Below are positions 1-5,032 of a stretch of 5,032 bases of DNA, piece after piece. The stretch is from a virus. The DNA lies in IMG/VR virus record IMGVR_UViG_3300020030_000096, positions 1 through 5,032 of that record, one strand, 5' to 3'. The notes beneath the pieces were generated by a model. That model was given only the letters and a program-made list of their open reading frames with translations. It made no database searches and was not told the origin of the DNA. The number at the start of each line of letters is the position of its first letter. Positions within the stretch are counted from its first letter, which is position 1. The position numbers were made by a program, and so were the translations under genes.

Positions 1-121
1 CCACGCGAGGACTGATTAGAAGAATCTCCAGTGTTGCGCCCGCGTCTGTACTTAGACTTCGGACTTAGCAGGCGCGGGCGCTTTGGTGTCCGGGTCGAAC
101 GGAGGAACGAAAGCATTTGCA
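1..121. repeat. Terminal redundancy (circular-genome assembly overlap), identical to 4912-5032
   Basis: Base-by-base comparison shows 1-121 equals 4912-5032 exactly (offset 4911). The junction falls inside a hairpin loop and next to the 3' end of a gene, which fits a linearised circle rather than a biological terminal repeat. Confidence 0.95.
36..81. other. GC-clamp hairpin spanning the stop codon of the VP5-like gene (second copy at 4947-4992)
   Basis: Arm 36-44 GCGCCCGCG pairs perfectly with 73-81 CGCGGGCGC (9 G:C pairs). The stem extends 46-48/69-71 after one T/G mismatch. The 20-nt loop (49-68) reads t-ACTTAG-ACTTCGG-ACTTAG, three tandem ACTT units. Confidence 0.7.
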
Positions 122-345
122 GCAGCAACCTGCGTCGGAGCACAAGCTACAAGCTCGCCAGTCTCGTCAGAATACTGACCAATTTCGTAAAGGAAAAAAT
201 CGTCTGGATGCTGACCAACGGTAGTACGACTATCGCGAACGAGATCAGAAAAAGACCGAGATGCATCAGCAGCAGAACGACTGAAAAACGGCGTATTAAA
301 AACCTGAAGTTTAGAGTCGAAAACGGAAAAAACTTTAAGGATCAT
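52..345 (-). CDS. VP5: VP5-like small nonstructural protein of gokushoviruses (97 aa)
   Basis: Complete ORF with ATG at 345-343 and TAA at 54-52. The N-terminus MILKVFSVFDSKLQVFNTPFF...RSFSDLV...HPDDFFLYEIGQYSDETGEL matches my recollection of the conserved pattern (M..K.F.V.D.K...F..PFF...A.R.F......HP.DF.L.EIG.fDd.tG) of the small protein found next to VP4 in gokushoviruses. Its ATG overlaps the VP4 stop as ATGA. Codons are rich in third-position T, like the other genes. Confidence 0.75.
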   Translation of the reverse strand: MILKVFSVFDSKLQVFNTPFFSRSAADASRSFSDLVRDSRTTVGQHPDDFFLYEIGQYSDETGELVACAPTQVAAANAFVPPFDPDTKAPAPAKSEV

Positions 346-1259
346 GATTGATTCTCTTCCATAACGCGTCTGAGTTTAGCAGCTTTCAATTCTTGGACGC
401 GTTCACGAACTGAAAGACGATGAGGTGAAGCTTCACCAGTATCTTCAAAATCGCGACCTCGCTTTTCGCGCAATCGCTTAATCTCTTCATAGCGAACAAT
501 ATCAGAACGCTCCAACAACTTATCAAAATAAGCTGGAGGGTTCATCATAATCTTTTCACTAAGAATAAGTCGATCATTAGTATAAATATCAGTCATGTAC
601 TTTTCACAGAAGTCATGACCAATGCCAGGTTTGAGCGAGCAATGACAAAATTCAGCAACTTTACCGTCATAATGCTCAAGCTTCAAAGGACCTGTAATTT
701 TCTTCGTAACATAACGAGCGACGTAAGCGGCAGTCTCAAAGTTGACTGAACCAATCGAACTAAAACCATACGGCCAAAGCTTCTCAAGCGTTGCACTGCG
801 ATAAAGGTTATTGCCTCGACGAATAGACCAGAGCTTTTTATCAACAAAAGTCACGCCAAAAATAACGGCGTGATAATGAGGACGTCCAAGCTTATCGCCA
901 TATTCACCGCACATGAAAAAACGAAGCTGTTGACCAAAACGACTCATGAAGTACTTACGCATACGCTTCATGAACAACTGAAAGTGCTCGTAATGAAGTG
1001 AAGCATCGGCAGGCAAATGAGCATCATCATAAGTCAGCGTAAGAAACATGTTGTTCTTATGTGACTTAGCTTCAACAACACATCGAGCAGCCCATTCACG
1101 AGACTTAGAAAGTCGACAGCCAATACATTGACCGCAAGGAATTTTGAACTCAGAAAAAGGAATCGCTTTGGAAGAATCAAAAGTTATGGCATTGCGATTG
1201 CCATTCTTGGTCTTTGTACCAGCCAGACGATAGGCAGTTATTGGGTGATAGCAAGGCAT
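342..1259 (-). CDS. VP4: VP4 replication initiation protein (HUH rolling-circle endonuclease), 305 aa from ATG 1259; ORF open to an in-frame TTG at 1271 (309 aa)
   Basis: Rolling-circle Rep motifs are present in order: motif I FLTLTY, motif II (HUH) RPHYHAVIFG, motif III with catalytic Tyr AAYVARYVTKK. The Cys cluster PCGQCIGCRLSKSREWAARC is typical of microvirus VP4. The N-terminus MPCYHPITAYR is typical of the family, so ATG 1259 is preferred over TTG 1271. No Shine-Dalgarno precedes either start. Confidence 0.93.
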   Translation of the reverse strand: MPCYHPITAYRLAGTKTKNGNRNAITFDSSKAIPFSEFKIPCGQCIGCRLSKSREWAARCVVEAKSHKNNMFLTLTYDDAHLPADASLHYEHFQLFMKRMRKYFMSRFGQQLRFFMCGEYGDKLGRPHYHAVIFGVTFVDKKLWSIRRGNNLYRSATLEKLWPYGFSSIGSVNFETAAYVARYVTKKITGPLKLEHYDGKVAEFCHCSLKPGIGHDFCEKYMTDIYTNDRLILSEKIMMNPPAYFDKLLERSDIVRYEEIKRLREKRGRDFEDTGEASPHRLSVRERVQELKAAKLRRVMEENQS

Positions 1260-1468
1260 TTTTCGAGACAAGCCATATGCAATTCACGAAGAATCGTTTC
1301 ACGAGTAGAGCGAGAACGAACTTGGAAAGAAATTAAAGAAGTCCAAGGACGGTCGCGATAAAGCGTCCAAGTCACGAGCTTGCGACGACCAACATAAGTC
1401 GATTCGCCAGGCACAAGCCAACAGACACCAAAATCCTTAAGGGTAAGACGAAAAGCCGCGGAAGCCAT
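1238..1468 (-). CDS. Orphan hypothetical protein, 76 aa from ATG 1468 (ORF track starts it at TTG 1477, 79 aa)
   Basis: Sense-strand ORF filling the VP8-VP4 gap. About 40 of 76 codons end in T and Arg is mostly CGT, the same bias as VP1, VP8 and the other clear genes. It ends 22 nt inside VP4, which lacks its own SD, so it may couple VP4 translation. It has no SD of its own and I recognise no motif. Confidence 0.5.
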   Translation of the reverse strand: MASAAFRLTLKDFGVCWLVPGESTYVGRRKLVTWTLYRDRPWTSLISFQVRSRSTRETILRELHMACLEKCLAITQ

Positions 1469-1545
1469 AGATAGCAAAGTTTCAAATGAAGAAGATGTTC
1501 AAAATGATAACTATGACGACCGCGACAGGTAAATAGTGTTAACGC

Positions 1546-1668
1546 TTAAATGCGGAAACCGCCACGCATTGGCGTAGCACGAGTATTCAAAGTCTTCGTA
1601 CGAGAAGCACCTTTACGGAAAATACGCTTAGATGCCTTACGAGAAAGCTTATGACGACGACGAAACAT
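1546..1668 (-). CDS. VP8: Small basic DNA-binding/packaging protein (phiX174 J analogue, gokushovirus VP8/ORF8-like), 40 aa
   Basis: Hand translation gives MFRRRHKLSRKASKRIFRKGASRTKTLNTRATPMRGGFRI, with 14 of 40 residues Arg/Lys. The C-terminal PMRGGxR motif is characteristic of these proteins. SD GAGG at 1677-1674 sits 5 nt before ATG 1668-1666; stop TAA at 1548-1546. It is too short to appear in the supplied ORF track. Confidence 0.85.
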   Translation of the reverse strand: MFRRRHKLSRKASKRIFRKGASRTKTLNTRATPMRGGFRI

Positions 1669-1675
1669 ATAAACC

Positions 1676-1774
1676 TCACTTTTTAAAAAGTTTCTTAACG
1701 GCTTTAAAGGCCTTCCAAATCGCAGAACCAGAGTTCAGCAAAACACTAACAAACTTTAAAATCGCATCTATCAT
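1676..1774 (-). CDS. Predicted 32-aa cationic amphipathic micro-protein MIDAILKFVSVLLNSGSAIWKAFKAVKKLFKK
   Basis: ATG 1774-1772 overlaps the VP2 stop TGA 1773-1771 (ATGA coupling). Its own stop TGA 1678-1676 is embedded in the SD of VP8. It fills an otherwise unexplained 102-nt gap in a compact genome, and 14 of 32 codons end in T. It corresponds to the C-terminal half of track ORF 1676..1867. There is no separate SD. Confidence 0.45.
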   Translation of the reverse strand: MIDAILKFVSVLLNSGSAIWKAFKAVKKLFKK

Positions 1775-2391
1775 TTCGCAAGACGAGCAGCACCAACAGC
1801 GGAATTTACAACCGGAGCAGATGTGCCGAACGGATTCAAAAGTTGCATCCATTGGCCGAAAGACCAAGCTCCAGAGTGATTTTTCATATAGTCAAAGGCC
1901 ATTTTGTGTCTTTCAGTCTCTAGCGCAGAATTAGCAGTCTTAAGCTTCTCTTGAGCCCATTGCTCTTTAAGAATGTAATTAGTCAACGCTTGAGTAGCAA
2001 CGGCTTCAAGAGAACGATTAGCTTCAAAATCAACACGCTTTTCCTCAGTTTTATTCAAAGCAGTCTGACTTTCAGCCTGACGAGCTGAAGAAACGCTCTG
2101 CTGTGTCTGAGCTTTGATCAAATCTTCCTGAGACCTGCCAAGAGAGGCTTCAACAGCCTTGGCAGACGCACCAGAGACATCAGGAGCCTCGATGATAGGA
2201 GCATTACCAGGAGCACCAGAACCTCCAGTTGCAGTCAGTATTGGATTAAGACCTGCTTTACGCAAGTCATCAACTTCCCACAGATGTCGATTCTGCATCA
2301 CCTCTTTCTGATGCTTCCAATTGAAATAAGAAGCAAGAGCAGAAGTACCAATACTAGCAGCACCACCAGCTAAAGCAGTCCAAGCTGACAT
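1771..2391 (-). CDS. VP2: VP2 minor capsid / DNA pilot protein (206 aa)
   Basis: It sits immediately downstream of VP1. It has a Gly/Ala/Ser-rich N-terminus and the conserved VP2 core ...QNRHLWEVDDLRKAGLNPILTATGG... (the xxDLkaAGLNPxL signature of gokushovirus VP2). AGGA lies about 9 nt upstream of ATG 2391-2389. Confidence 0.85.
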   Translation of the reverse strand: MSAWTALAGGAASIGTSALASYFNWKHQKEVMQNRHLWEVDDLRKAGLNPILTATGGSGAPGNAPIIEAPDVSGASAKAVEASLGRSQEDLIKAQTQQSVSSARQAESQTALNKTEEKRVDFEANRSLEAVATQALTNYILKEQWAQEKLKTANSALETERHKMAFDYMKNHSGAWSFGQWMQLLNPFGTSAPVVNSAVGAARLAK

Positions 2392-2392
2392 A

Positions 2393-2455
2393 TCACTGTC
2401 CTAAAGCAAAGATAACGATCACACCTACAGCAGCAAGCCAAAAAACTAAAGCCAT
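2393..2455 (-). CDS. Predicted 20-aa hydrophobic (single transmembrane span) micro-protein MALVFWLAAVGVIVIFALGQ
   Basis: Hand translation of the VP1-VP2 spacer. SD GAGG (2464-2461) sits 5 nt before ATG 2455-2453, as good as or better than the sites of the other genes. Stop TGA 2395-2393 lies 1 nt before the VP2 ATG, and the VP2 SD sits inside its last codons. 10 of 20 codons end in T. There are no charged residues, and 17 consecutive apolar residues (A2-L18) could approximately span a membrane. Confidence 0.55.
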   Translation of the reverse strand: MALVFWLAAVGVIVIFALGQ

Positions 2456-2465
2456 ATCAACCTCA

Positions 2466-4097
2466 TTAAAAATGATCAACCAGACCAGGAACAGAATAGA
2501 CAGGCATCGGACGAGCACACTTCAAACGAATATACGAGTCAAACAAAAATTGCGGTTCACTAGTCACAGCAACAACTCGCTCGACAGGCGGATTATCTTG
2601 AATAAATTGAGACGAAAGAGCTGGCAAAGAGCTGAACTTCTGCGCTAAATGCCAACTATCCAACGGCTGAGGATCAGTTGAGCGGAATTTCCCTGTAATC
2701 TGGCCGGGATAATAACGATACTCAGCGTAGCGTTCTTGATAACCAAAAACCTTGTCATCATCAACAGTGCCTTGCGCATAAATTTCTTTATTGAGAACAG
2801 CTTGTTCGCCAAGGTGCGCAAGCACAGGCCAATAAAAATCAAAGCGACCTTGGCGTGACCACATGCGATTCAGACCTTGCTGGTAAGTCAGGTCAGCACG
2901 AACATTCACAAAACCAAAGACATAGCCGTGCTCGACAAAAGACTTCGAGAAACCATGGAACGAATCTGAGACCACACCAAAAGCAGCCAGATTTCCTTGC
3001 GGAGTCGTCTCATTAGTAGCTGAGGTCTGCTGAACAGGGTTGATCGAAATACGAGCAGATGAACCGCCAAGGTATTCAGGACGTTGCAAACGAGCATCAG
3101 GCGAGATCACGCCGAAGTGAGAGCGAAGAATTTCTGTGTATCGCGTACCGCCGCGAGCGTCGCGTTCATAAAGCTTTTGGATCTGGAAAGCTTGACGGAG
3201 ATCATTAATTGAGATCGGCGTAGCTGTTGAAAGGTCAGCAGTACCAGAAAAGCTAAGGGCAGGATCTTTCCAGCGCAAAATACCACGCGCGGCTTGATGC
3301 TGAGAGCCAGCATCAAATTTAGCCTTCACGGTGTCAAAACCAAAATTGTTAGTATCGCCAGTAAGCGACAAAGAGCCAATGGAAATTTGATTCGTTTGAA
3401 TCAGATCAGTCGAAAAATCAAAAAGAGGAGAACCATTGCCAACAACGCTACCTGAAAGCGAAGCACTACCACCAATTGAAATTTCTACACCTGGGCCTTT
3501 TTGCGGCCACGGCAAACAAGACGTGAAATAGTCATGACGCTTACCACGACGAACCAAACTGTAATCAGAAAAATTATCTGGACCATCACCGGTCGGAACT
3601 TTCAAAGATTCTTGAAGATTCTCATCTCTAAACCATTCATTGAAAATGAGATTGTAAGCGCGGAAAGGAAGCGCATTTACTTTCAAAGCTTTATTGACAT
3701 TCGTCGGAAGACCGAAATAATCCCAAAGCGTCTGATTCTGAACATTCGTACCAGAGACCGTCGGAATTAAAAAGTCTGTTGAATCAGTTGGATTCTTCTG
3801 CTCACCATTGAACTTCTGCCAATTGTCCCAAACAAGCCGATTGGGAACAAAGAAGAAGAAAGTCTCCAGATAAAGATTGTCCATAAAGGGAACAATCGGA
3901 GTAGCTAAACGAGCAAACAAAGTAGCTGTCAGCTTAAAAGAATCTCCTGGAAGAACTTCATCGACATAAAAAGGTACAAGATAACCAGAATTAAAAGTTG
4001 TCTTATAACCATGAGAGCGGTCAAAAACCGATCGAGGAATCTGAGTCGAAGGAATCTGAGAGAACAGATGCTGAGTAGAACGATTAACAGATGACAT
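2466..4097 (-). CDS. VP1: VP1 major capsid protein (543 aa), Microviridae F-protein family, gokushovirus type
   Basis: The size and N-terminus (...HLFSQIPSTQIPRSVFDRSHGYKTTFNSGYLVPFYVDEVLPGDSF...) match the conserved gokushovirus VP1 opening (RS.FD.S...KTTF..G.L.P....EVLPGD.F). An in-frame TAG immediately precedes ATG 4097-4095. Third-position T bias is strong. Confidence 0.95.
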   Translation of the reverse strand: MSSVNRSTQHLFSQIPSTQIPRSVFDRSHGYKTTFNSGYLVPFYVDEVLPGDSFKLTATLFARLATPIVPFMDNLYLETFFFFVPNRLVWDNWQKFNGEQKNPTDSTDFLIPTVSGTNVQNQTLWDYFGLPTNVNKALKVNALPFRAYNLIFNEWFRDENLQESLKVPTGDGPDNFSDYSLVRRGKRHDYFTSCLPWPQKGPGVEISIGGSASLSGSVVGNGSPLFDFSTDLIQTNQISIGSLSLTGDTNNFGFDTVKAKFDAGSQHQAARGILRWKDPALSFSGTADLSTATPISINDLRQAFQIQKLYERDARGGTRYTEILRSHFGVISPDARLQRPEYLGGSSARISINPVQQTSATNETTPQGNLAAFGVVSDSFHGFSKSFVEHGYVFGFVNVRADLTYQQGLNRMWSRQGRFDFYWPVLAHLGEQAVLNKEIYAQGTVDDDKVFGYQERYAEYRYYPGQITGKFRSTDPQPLDSWHLAQKFSSLPALSSQFIQDNPPVERVVAVTSEPQFLFDSYIRLKCARPMPVYSVPGLVDHF

Positions 4098-4107
4098 CTA
4101 AAAATCC

Positions 4108-4118
4108 ATATATATATA
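4108..4118. repeat. (AT)n microsatellite-like tract atatatatata between the upstream hairpin/T-run and the VP1 start
   Basis: Read directly from the sequence. It lies 11 nt upstream of the VP1 ATG on the sense strand. Confidence 0.8.
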
Positions 4119-4124
4119 GATAAC

Positions 4125-4164
4125 AAAAAAGGCGGCTAAGTCCAAAAGCCTCGACTCAGCCGCC
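4125..4164 (-). terminator. Intrinsic-terminator-like hairpin plus T6, 28 nt upstream of the VP1 start
   Basis: Arms 4131-4142 and 4153-4164 form 11 Watson-Crick pairs. The single A/C mismatch on the + strand becomes a G.U wobble in minus-sense RNA, giving a continuous 12-bp stem only in the sense transcript. The loop is 10 nt. Sense-strand TTTTTT (4130-4125) follows; no T-run follows on the + strand. Confidence 0.6.
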
Positions 4165-4216
4165 TTACGGATCAAAAACCCAAGACTCCGGAAAGCTTTA
4201 TCACCGTACAACGAAG

Positions 4217-4244
4217 CATATACCACAAAGCAAAGAGAAAGCAA
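4217..4244 (-). promoter_or_regulatory. Weak candidate sigma70-type promoter (sense strand): -35 TTGCTT (4244-4239), 16-nt spacer, extended -10 TGgTATATG (4225-4217)
   Basis: By-eye match only: -35 is 3/6 and -10 is 4/6, plus a TGn extension. The host is unknown. Confidence 0.2.
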
Positions 4245-4256
4245 ACATCGAAGCAA
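4228..4256. repeat. Three helically phased copies of AAGCAA (sense TTGCTT) at 4228, 4239 and 4251
   Basis: The first two copies extend to AAAGCAAA (4227-4234 and 4238-4245). Spacing is 11 and 12 nt, about one helical turn. The array ends 10 nt from the downstream direct repeat of the candidate origin. Confidence 0.6.
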
Positions 4257-4265
4257 TGCGTTAAA

Positions 4266-4282
4266 TACCCGCGCGCAGATCG
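4266..4282. repeat. Direct repeat copy 1 (tacccgCgcgcaGatcg) flanking the long hairpin
   Basis: 15 of 17 positions are identical to 4332-4348. Both differences are transitions. Both copies are followed by GAG (copy 2 after a 2-nt insertion). Confidence 0.85.
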
Positions 4283-4288
4283 GAGTGT

Positions 4289-4329
4289 CACCGGAACCAG
4301 TTACATCAAGTAAGTAACTGGTTCCGGTG
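4289..4329 (-). other. Perfect 16-bp stem / 9-nt loop hairpin; candidate viral-strand (rolling-circle) origin
   Basis: Arm 4289-4304 caccggaaccagttac is the exact reverse complement of 4314-4329. The loop on the sense strand reads TTACTTGAT, which contains ACTTGAT, the heptamer spanning the gpA cleavage site in the phiX174 origin (CAACTTG/ATATTAATAAC). Confidence 0.55.
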
Positions 4330-4331
4330 TG

Positions 4332-4348
4332 TACCCGTGCGCAAATCG
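4332..4348. repeat. Direct repeat copy 2 (tacccgTgcgcaAatcg) flanking the long hairpin
   Basis: See copy 1. The offset between copies is 66 nt. Confidence 0.85.
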
Positions 4349-4359
4349 TTGAGATATCT

Positions 4360-4389
4360 AAAAAAAAAGATCGCCGCAAACGGGCGATC
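4360..4389 (-). terminator. Rho-independent terminator downstream of VP3
   Basis: GC-rich stem GATCGCC (4369-4375) pairs with GGCGATC (4383-4389), with a possible eighth pair, and a short loop. On the sense strand it is followed immediately by nine T (4368-4360). Confidence 0.75.
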
Positions 4390-4401
4390 GAAAGGATTTT
4401 G

Positions 4402-4422
4402 AAGGGATGGAAACCATCCCTT
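4402..4422. other. Perfect 9-bp / 3-nt-loop hairpin just after the VP3 stop
   Basis: AAGGGATGG aaa CCATCCCTT. No T-run follows on either strand. Confidence 0.7.
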
Positions 4423-4439
4423 ATATGAGTTATTAGTAA

Positions 4440-4883
4440 TTACCCGTTGTTGTCAGAAGAAGACGGTTTAACATCATCAGCGGACGCTGCAGAAGCAGTA
4501 GGCTCAGGAGTCTTAGCTTCCTCAGGAGCGACAAAACCAAGCTCTTCAAGCTTAGATTTTTGCACAGGATCATTAAGCGCGTGAAGGAATTCAGAAGGTG
4601 AGTTATTAAACGAAGCACGAACATGAGAAGGAAGGCTTTCAAAGTATTCAGTTGCACGAGCAACAGCATTCTGAGCAGTCTGAAAATCTGTGACATCAGA
4701 AAAGTCACCAAACTGAATTGGGCGCTTCGGTGAAAAAGGATCAGTCAAAAAACCGGTCTCAGCATACTTTTGCAAGATATTGTCGATCATGGTCTCATCT
4801 TTAAAGTGCTGCTGAGTCATCGACGGTTCAGTAAAGACAATGCCTTCAGCGGTAGCGTTTGTGTGATTAATTTTGAACTTCAT
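4440..4883 (-). CDS. VP3: VP3 internal scaffolding protein (147 aa)
   Basis: From ATG 4883-4881, preceded by GGAG (SD) with a 5-nt spacer. The sequence ...TQQHFKDETMIDNILQKYAETG...FGDFSDVTDFQTAQNAV..A.EYFESLPSHVRASFNNSPSEFL... matches the chlamydiaphage/gokushovirus VP3 scaffold pattern (Q.FKDE.DIN.I..K....G; FGDF...D...A; F..LP...R..F.N.P..FL). The 48-codon upstream extension in the ORF track crosses a terminator hairpin and the circular junction and is not credible. Confidence 0.88.
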   Translation of the reverse strand: MKFKINHTNATAEGIVFTEPSMTQQHFKDETMIDNILQKYAETGFLTDPFSPKRPIQFGDFSDVTDFQTAQNAVARATEYFESLPSHVRASFNNSPSEFLHALNDPVQKSKLEELGFVAPEEAKTPEPTASAASADDVKPSSSDNNG

Positions 4884-4896
4884 ATAAGCTCCATAT

Positions 4897-4924
4897 AAAA
4901 AAGTCCTCGCACCACGCGAGGACT
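4897..4924 (-). terminator. Rho-independent terminator after the VP5-like gene, abutting the VP3 ribosome-binding site (distal arm duplicated at 5-13)
   Basis: AGTCCTCGC (4902-4910) pairs perfectly with GCGAGGACT (4916-4924), with the 5-nt loop accac. The sense strand continues ...GGACTTTTTTATATGGAGCTTATATG, so the T-run runs straight into the VP3 SD and ATG. Confidence 0.7.
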
Positions 4925-5032
4925 GATTAGAAGAATCTCCAGTGTTGCGCCCGCGTCTGTACTTAGACTTCGGACTTAGCAGGCGCGGGCGCTTTGGTGT
5001 CCGGGTCGAACGGAGGAACGAAAGCATTTGCA
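4912..5032. repeat. Second copy of the terminal redundancy (identical to 1-121); includes a duplicate of the last 23 codons of the VP5-like gene (4963-5032) and of the GC-clamp hairpin (4947-4992)
   Basis: Exact identity with 1-121. Confidence 0.95.

Follow-up and report, generated by a model that had tools for sequence, protein, structure and literature searches.

A conserved 20-codon open reading frame for a membrane-type peptide at the VP1–VP2 junction of gokushoviruses, and unrelated peptides of similar design in the same slot

The window considered here, the whole stretch of 5,032 nucleotides (nt) at positions 1 to 5,032 of the IMG/VR virus record IMGVR_UViG_3300020030_000096, is one circular gokushovirus genome of ~4912 nt with a terminal repeat of 120 nt (1–120 = 4913–5032), a duplication typical of circular genomes whose assembly ran beyond the starting point. 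The minus strand is the coding strand of all genes in the window. Between the gene of the major capsid protein VP1 (2466–4097, minus strand; Pfam Phage_F, E = 6.5e-193), which lies upstream, and the downstream gene of VP2, the DNA pilot or minor capsid protein (1771–2391, minus strand; homologous to annotated VP2/DNA pilot genes of relatives), a spacer of 74 nt (2392–2465) is located. A first inspection of the letters without database searches, in the following called the sequence-only reading, had noticed in this spacer an unannotated open reading frame (ORF) of 20 codons and had proposed that it encodes a membrane peptide acting in lysis, membrane targeting or superinfection exclusion. Direct reading of the sequence bears out the structural part of this description. 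The micro-ORF, here called family A, occupies 2393–2455 on the minus strand (63 nt: 20 codons and a TGA) and encodes MALVFWLAAVGVIVIFALGQ. Its ATG (2453–2455) is followed by 19 more codons and the TGA stop (2393–2395). The Shine-Dalgarno (SD) motif GAGG (2461–2464, minus strand) stands 1 nt past the VP1 stop codon TAA (2466–2468) and, at the spacing noted before, 5 nt (TTGAT, 2456–2460) ahead of the ATG, and the start context GAGGTTGATATG is indeed nearly the same as the context GAGGTTTATATG of the VP8-like gene (1546–1668). At the other end a single base (2392) separates the stop codon from the VP2 ATG (2389–2391), and an AGGA (2399–2402, minus strand), likely the SD motif of VP2, lies inside codons 18–19, which is also how the last codons had been interpreted. 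A 41-residue version starting from a GTG at 2518 inside VP1 occurs in the window only and not in relatives.

The peptide had been described as essentially one uncharged membrane span, and its composition agrees with this: it contains no charged residue, ends in ...FALGQ, and its grand average of hydropathy (GRAVY) of 2.33 is the highest of all ATG-initiated ORFs of 18–45 residues on either strand of the genome. The sum of the Hessa scale over 19 residues is about -2.6 kcal/mol and favors membrane insertion. The expectation that such an ORF escapes standard gene callers by its length was also correct, as it is unannotated in the six closest GenBank records and absent from protein collections. 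These six records are human-associated gokushoviruses with 85–87% nucleotide identity to the window. The clade to which they and the window belong, clade A, is very common in the human gut: a VP1 search returned at least 8000 scored candidates, and identity was 84% or higher for each of the top 120.

The sequence-only reading had proposed to look for indels or stops in relatives, and this comparison speaks for the gene. Searching by tblastn with the 20-mer is unsuited to distant relatives (against 50,697 phage records it returned only the six close relatives, with weak E-values), and junctions were hence gathered blind to the spacer, with the conserved VP1 C-terminus as the probe for a scan of public contigs. 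GenBank and IMG/VR together supplied 58 distinct clade-A junctions, and the reading frame is intact in every one, with 20 codons in 57 of them and 19 in one; it is also intact in 25 of 28 further metagenome contigs, 14 of these with previously unseen junction sequences; the three exceptions are a contig-end artefact, a frameshift in a T-run and a clean deletion. The stop codon varies between TGA, TAA and TAG among relatives and one locus starts with GTG, while a GGAG or GAGG motif is retained at 53/58 loci, usually joined to the VP1 stop as TAAGGAG. Among 47 nucleotide haplotypes the column entropy is 5.25/1.47/9.29 at codon positions 1/2/3, and on a neighbor-joining tree parsimony places 54/13/97 changes at these positions (chi-square p ~1e-14). 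The pairwise ratio of non-synonymous to synonymous differences (pN/pS) is 0.31 in the frame of the micro-ORF, compared to 0.76 and 2.74 in the other two frames and 0.35 for the N-terminus of VP2. Replacements at positions 2–19 occur only among hydrophobic or small residues (I/V, F/I, L/V, A/V, A/I/T/V, A/C/G/S, A/S/T/V), a charged residue is never found in positions 1–19 across clade-A relatives, and residue 20 alone varies freely (Q/H/N/R/C/G/stop). The micro-ORF thus evolves under purifying selection in its own frame; it is very probably a translated and selected gene for a membrane-type peptide, and what selection specifically keeps is an unbroken, uncharged hydrophobic stretch of 19–20 residues.

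The same data bear on the possibility that the ORF is no gene at all but a chance frame in a T-rich spacer that is conserved as an RNA or DNA element. A T-rich strand favors hydrophobic ORFs, and the clade is only ~11% divergent over the micro-ORF stretch, both of which would fit such a chance origin. This explanation is extremely improbable and effectively already refuted by the codon-phase pattern (p ~1e-14), by the chance probability of at most 0.075% and by the comparison with off-frame control ORFs, of which 75–81% are intact compared to 58/58 for the micro-ORF. A closed ATG ORF of 20 codons or more turns up in 0.8–1.2% of shuffled or Markov-generated 74-mers, and one with a GRAVY of at least 2 in 0.005–0.075%. 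As controls served overprinted hydrophobic ORFs within VP5, VP1 and VP2, which are intact in 40/53, 43/53 and 1/9 relatives, respectively, and which tolerate prolines and stops; those in VP5 (window 147–266, 39 residues) and at the 5' end of VP1 (3929–4126, 27 residues from its own ATG) lie on the minus strand. Being broken in 25% (VP5), 19% (VP1) and 89% (VP2) of relatives, these ORFs were also rejected as competing lysis genes. A role of the spacer as an RNA element was likewise rejected, as its predicted RNA fold is no better than that of shuffled sequences (z = +0.77), no terminator-like or promoter-like site is present within the spacer, and an Rfam scan of the window gave no match, so that neither a stable fold nor an Rfam family speaks for a non-coding element.

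The same slot was inspected in other gokushovirus clades using an unselected sample of 120 VP1–VP2 junctions. In 11/120 of these a hydrophobic micro-ORF fills the gap, and these ORFs belong to families that are unrelated in sequence. Family B (MNDLQISTIAIVSLCIIVVLRTFGLI) has 26 residues, starts with TTG or ATG after GAGG or GGAGG, and its stop overlaps the VP2 ATG. It lies just past the VP1 stop (L042, L065, L122, L123, L250–L262, L013 and L392) and is present in at least 15 of 16 loci in which VP1 ends with PMPVYGVPGLMDHF. Its pN/pS is 0.155 in frame compared to 0.82 and 12 off frame; the alternative frame of this junction (MTYKSQLLQSYLCVLLLSCVLLV, MTYKS...), with a pN/pS of 0.82 against 0.155, was rejected as not selected. 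Family C (MNWFSAIASLLGIVIVALLIFQFMSRL) is represented by L029, L115 and L359, the variant in L359 having 21 residues, and family D (MRDLIFLVGLVLVVFMMVYLLQQFIPAG and three variants) by L293, L319, L351 and L368. Family E (MDTIKKVFKVFIWFMLIMCVFYLLGLLL) comes from L405, a gokushovirus region within a 76-kb contig of a Bacillota metagenome-assembled genome (MAG), which is apparently a prophage, and family F is a longer type of ~55–60 residues (L383, L404, L093). Families B to E comprise 21–29 and mostly 24–29 residues and, like family F, are of the single-helix type; in these parallel families the stop either overlaps the VP2 start or lies directly next to it. A crude search for SD-preceded intergenic transmembrane micro-ORFs in 111 genomes placed five of seven sense hits at the VP1–VP2 junction and two elsewhere; it also gave five hits in the antisense control, and with strict filters that missed several known cases it is only indicative. 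Long spacers that hold no micro-ORF carry a GC-rich hairpin instead, as in L014 (3625–3683), in L384 after VP1, in phiMH2K (L375, 1603–1683) and in L381. The hairpins of L014 and L384 are followed by a T-run and look terminator-like, and L014 additionally has a (TTTG)n repeat. The occurrence of unrelated micro-ORFs for a single transmembrane helix in one slot favors a real membrane function, and peptides of the same design but of unrelated sequence suggest repeated de novo birth, in which membrane effectors would have arisen again and again from T-rich spacer DNA.

The geometry of the junction has consequences for expression. An SD motif abutting the VP1 stop and an ORF end located 1–2 nt before the VP2 ATG are the classic arrangement of coupled genes, and VP1, the peptide and VP2 are therefore probably translated in a chain: ribosomes ending VP1 would meet the abutting SD motif and translate the 20 codons, and termination 1–2 nt ahead of the VP2 ATG would link the synthesis of all three proteins. 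Codons 16–19 (TTT GCT TTA GGA) hardly vary, and for GCT and TTA this extends to the third positions, which argues that the 3' end doubles as coding sequence and as VP2 ribosome-binding site; this double constraint explains why silent-site change is somewhat lower than in VP1. Fusion products are unlikely, and readthrough or frameshift fusion was rejected, because the micro-ORF keeps no constant frame relative to either neighbor: 9 nt (in frame) separate the VP1 stop from the micro-ORF ATG in most relatives but 10 nt in the window, L240 and L249, and the distance to the VP2 ATG is either 1 nt or 2 nt. A chain of 20 residues is released before it leaves the exit tunnel of the ribosome, so that membrane insertion would be post-translational; too short for co-translational targeting, the peptide would enter the host cytoplasmic membrane as a single helix.

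Such coupling raises the question whether translation of the ORF as such is what counts, the micro-ORF being a pure relay that delivers ribosomes to the VP2 start and sets the VP1:VP2 ratio while the peptide is irrelevant. An SD motif fused to the VP1 stop, a stop codon that in every family either precedes the VP2 ATG by 1–2 nt or overlaps it, a VP2 SD motif within last codons that are invariant even at silent sites, and a per-site synonymous change somewhat below that of VP1 would all be expected of a relay. A relay needs no specific amino acids, yet only 13 second-position changes stand against 97 third-position changes, family A has a pN/pS of 0.31 and family B one of 0.155, polar or charged residues are never admitted, and direct VP1–VP2 coupling over 8 nt works in other clades. 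The explanation by a relay alone is thus contradicted by the selection at the amino-acid level and is very unlikely.

The micro-ORF is not the only small ORF next to VP2. On the other side of VP2 a 32-residue ORF (MIDAILKFVSVLLNSGSAIWKAFKAVKKLFKK; 1676–1774, minus strand) starts with an ATG overlapping the VP2 stop (ATGA) and ends with a stop overlapping the SD motif of the VP8-like gene. It is found in 49 of 51 relatives with an in-frame pN/pS of 0.136, it would form a strongly amphipathic cationic helix (hydrophobic moment 0.67), and it is labeled 'hypothetical protein' in public records, one variant occurring on 533 contigs. Family-B genomes have a different ORF of 26 residues after VP2 (MNKWFSALCVAIGAAATYLGQFLFGK; 14 loci, for example L251 at ~1030–1111 and L042 at ~954–1035, both rotated to the VP1 stop). 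In L218, a B-type and an MNKW-type ORF follow each other in tandem between VP1 and VP2 within the first 200 nt after VP1, and family C shares an MN(K)WFSA start with the MNKW-type ORFs; these ORFs may be homologous and mobile between junctions. Small peptides paired around VP2 hint at a two-component function, and the 32-residue peptide is a possible partner of the 20-mer.

This arrangement could also mean that the peptide helps VP2 in assembly or entry, either packaged into the virion or as a chaperone of the hydrophobic, Gly-rich VP2 N-terminus, perhaps together with the 32-residue peptide. The position between two virion genes and the chaining to VP2 translation are in line with this, as are the small ORFs that occur both before and after VP2 in clades A and B and stand in tandem before VP2 in L218; the filamentous single-stranded DNA (ssDNA) phages provide a precedent with pVII and pIX, which are hydrophobic virion proteins of 32–33 residues made from coupled genes. 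Against it stands that VP2 N-termini look alike by eye in genomes with and without a micro-ORF, so that nothing appears to be split off VP2, and that half of the gokushoviruses assemble without a junction ORF. Moreover, the relative L011 has a VP2 just 56% identical to that of the window and a 20-mer equal to the clade consensus, which shows that the peptide does not co-vary with VP2. A helper of VP2 is therefore judged to be unlikely. The related idea that the micro-ORF is a transmembrane segment split off VP2 was rejected because of the same similarity, by eye, of the VP2 N-termini.

Comparison with known small membrane proteins returned no relative by sequence. Neither the 20-mer nor the clade consensus matched a Pfam family at E-values up to 10, PHROGs gave only chance-level matches for the 20-mer (E >=0.15), and scans of all the micro-peptides against PHROGs and Pfam yielded nothing significant. 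In an exact look-up in a collection of 15 billion proteins the 20-mer, the 26/29-mers and the 27-mers were absent and the 32-mer alone was present. A VP1–VP2 micro-ORF of gokushoviruses is not described in the openly searchable literature (subscription-only literature lay outside this search). The obvious point of reference within the microviruses is protein E of phiX174, which inhibits MraY with SlyD as chaperone. It is a small membrane protein whose active part is a single N-terminal transmembrane helix, and the family A peptide with its hydrophobic segment of helix length would be of the same kind. E, however, has 91 residues, is overprinted in another frame of the scaffolding gene D and has a conserved proline in its helix and a charged, basic C-terminal tail, whereas the family A peptide has 20 residues, is intergenic and lacks a tail and any detectable homology (Pfam Microvir_lysis was not matched); none of 24 family A peptide variants contains a proline. 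By sequence, the micro-protein is thus not a member of the phiX174 E family. Nor is it a holin: canonical holins have one to three or more transmembrane domains (TMDs), a charged hydrophilic C-terminal tail and an endolysin partner, while the 20-mer has no tail and no endolysin or peptidase was seen among the five large proteins of the window, which in Pfam match Phage_F, REP_ORF2-G2P, Phage_ORF5, Chlamy_scaf, or nothing.

Closer parallels are offered by the single-gene lysis proteins (Sgls) of ssRNA phages, such as LysM, which acts against MurJ, the L protein of MS2, and 33 new Sgls (PMC7693330); these are tiny and diverse, mostly with one TMD and an SD motif, and arose de novo at varied positions. 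Their diversity matches that of several unrelated families in one gokushovirus slot. Unlike family A with its 20 codons in an intergenic slot of its own, they are mostly overprinted, comprise at least 25 codons and were functionally tested. Measured against the screen that yielded them (PMC7693330), family A falls short of 25 codons, has the SD motif (GAGG in the window; 53/58 relatives) and, going by its hydropathy, would very probably qualify by a TMD, and most members of families B to E with their 24–29 codons pass or nearly pass on all three counts, L359 having 21 codons. In size and composition the family A peptide most resembles the 18–19-residue Ibs-type toxins and the bacterial one-helix regulators, with no shared family. 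The type I toxins Ibs (18–19 residues), TisB, ShoB and Hok depolarize the inner membrane when expressed. Ibs peptides are of similar size and nearly purely hydrophobic (GRAVY 2.44 for IbsC, compared to 2.33 for the 20-mer), but toxins of this type are chromosomal and repressed by antisense RNA, whereas the micro-ORF is a phage late gene without sequence similarity to them; no promoter-like site was seen on the opposite strand within the spacer, where no search aimed at antisense elements was made. The host peptides KdpF, AcrZ, MgrB, MgtS and PmrR are one-helix peptides of less than 50 residues which bind larger membrane proteins and are missed by gene callers. They are encoded by the host and usually have flanking charges, while the gokushovirus 20-mer is phage-encoded and uncharged. 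pVII and pIX (33 and 32 residues) are components of the virion tip of filamentous phages, which are assembled at the membrane. They resemble the micro-protein as very small hydrophobic ssDNA-phage proteins from tightly packed, coupled genes, but gokushoviruses are icosahedral and are assembled in the cytoplasm.

For the function of the peptide we tentatively propose, with somewhat less than even confidence, that it is a late membrane effector contributing to lysis or permeabilization of the host. As the sequence-only reading had stated, gokushoviruses have no identified lysis gene (PMC7062461, PMC3394797). An SD motif, a TMD and a small size are the criteria that yielded the new single-gene lysis proteins of ssRNA phages, and these genes arise de novo and mutually unrelated in close relatives (PMC7693330). 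The lysis proteins known from small phages, phiX174 E among them, work by means of single transmembrane helices; a further example is LysM with 37 residues (PMC12506998). Mechanistically, the peptide could block a membrane step of cell-wall synthesis by helix–helix contact, similar to the transmembrane domains of phiX174 E and of LysM from phage M; alternatively, it could depolarize the membrane as the 19-residue type I toxins do, and it might act jointly with the 32-residue amphipathic cationic peptide encoded after VP2.

Several observations weigh against a lytic role. In 53/120 junctions of the unselected sample the gap between VP1 and VP2 is at most 15 nt and holds no ORF, and the junctions of the cultured reference phages Chp2 and phiMH2K likewise contain no such ORF. 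The six-gene phage EC6098 lyses E. coli (PMC7062461) and is without a junction ORF, and the junction of its relative L384 holds only a hairpin, so that this gene is not a general requirement for lysis in the subfamily. Within clade A, the genome L143 has lost the micro-ORF cleanly by a deletion of ~64 nt between TTATGG microhomologies (about 1989–2002) with every other gene intact, including the 32-residue ORF. A second record, L438, is 100% identical to L143 and may not be independent of it. In L437 an extra T in the T-run of codons 15–16 moves the micro-ORF into the VP2 frame; either genuine variation or faulty assembly of the homopolymer may lie behind this. Since about half of the gokushoviruses have no junction ORF and L143 carries the deletion, the micro-ORF is unlikely to be a lysis gene that all gokushoviruses share or strictly require. 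Furthermore, of 293 TMD-containing ssRNA-phage candidates, 178 were without effect in E. coli (PMC7693330), and a TMD alone is hence of little predictive value; the coding strand with its 33.7% T gives hydrophobic ORFs by default; and with 20 residues and no flanking charges the peptide is shorter and plainer than any characterized lysis protein.

The remaining genes of the window are VP4 (342–1259; Pfam REP_ORF2-G2P), VP5 (52–345; Pfam Phage_ORF5), VP3 (4440–4883; Pfam Chlamy_scaf) and the VP8-like gene for an Arg-rich protein of 40 residues (1546–1668; phrog_10695, E = 2.7e-12), all on the minus strand. Upstream of VP1 lies a large region without genes (4098–4440), which contains a perfect 16-bp inverted repeat (4289–4304 / 4314–4329), a 14-bp inverted repeat (4129–4142 / 4153–4166), a TA-rich palindrome (4104–4121) and a terminator-like hairpin on the minus strand (4369–4389), elements which may be origin or transcription signals. 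A look-up of contigs encoding the VP1 of the window returned no record. Its closest relatives in genome collections are labeled Veillonella, Sutterella and similar, which suggests that the hosts of these gokushoviruses are diderm gut bacteria; the nearest collection VP1 is 71% identical and comes from a short MAG contig named 'Veillonella', in which the micro-ORF is absent. Assignment of a host to clade A failed, the best match being only this VP1 of 71% identity. For family B, the locus L392 (JBJDXD010000014.1, 1–5397) is a family-B genome on a Phascolarctobacterium MAG contig of 20 kb, where a bacterial sodium:alanine symporter gene follows it, an arrangement that suggests integration and a Negativicutes host.

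This prophage-like arrangement is of importance for a further explanation, according to which the peptide is a non-lytic modulator that binds a host inner-membrane protein in the manner of MgrB, AcrZ, KdpF and MgtS and might serve superinfection exclusion, by closing the entry route to competing phages, or the retuning of transport or energy metabolism during infection. The selection evidence is the same as for a lytic effector, and the apparent dispensability in one intact genome together with the patchy, clade-specific spread fits an accessory, host-specific role better than an essential one; as the family-B genome in L392 adjoins a bacterial sodium:alanine symporter gene, prophage-borne exclusion is conceivable. 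Against a modulator it has to be considered that the ORF sits in, and is seemingly coupled to, the late structural genes rather than early or lysogeny genes, and that exclusion proteins are usually larger, which makes this role rather unlikely. Returning to the lytic effector, its extension beyond the window, in which families A to E would provide the lysis system so far unrecognized in many gokushoviruses, perhaps each with a second peptide flanking VP2, is possible but doubtful. If it were true, these peptides would be the smallest phage lysis effectors known, born repeatedly de novo in one slot, and each family could reveal a new vulnerability of the cell envelope in diderm gut bacteria such as Negativicutes.

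Gokushoviruses are among the most abundant ssDNA phages of the human gut and of the environment, and the mode by which they lyse or manipulate their hosts is not known (PMC7062461). The micro-ORF is unannotated, undescribed in the searchable literature and part of a wider pattern that had gone unnoticed, and in a widespread clade standard annotation overlooks at least one gene under selection, probably two. Annotation of microviruses therefore needs a lower ORF length cut-off at gene junctions. A short list of peptides of 20–29 residues is now at hand as candidates for lysis, depolarization, exclusion or virion association, and, if active, these could become leads for minimal 'protein antibiotics'. 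For the biology of the family, the VP1–VP2 junction appears as a recurrent birthplace of tiny membrane peptides, and it may serve as a clean natural example of the de novo origin of membrane micro-protein genes from T-rich DNA.

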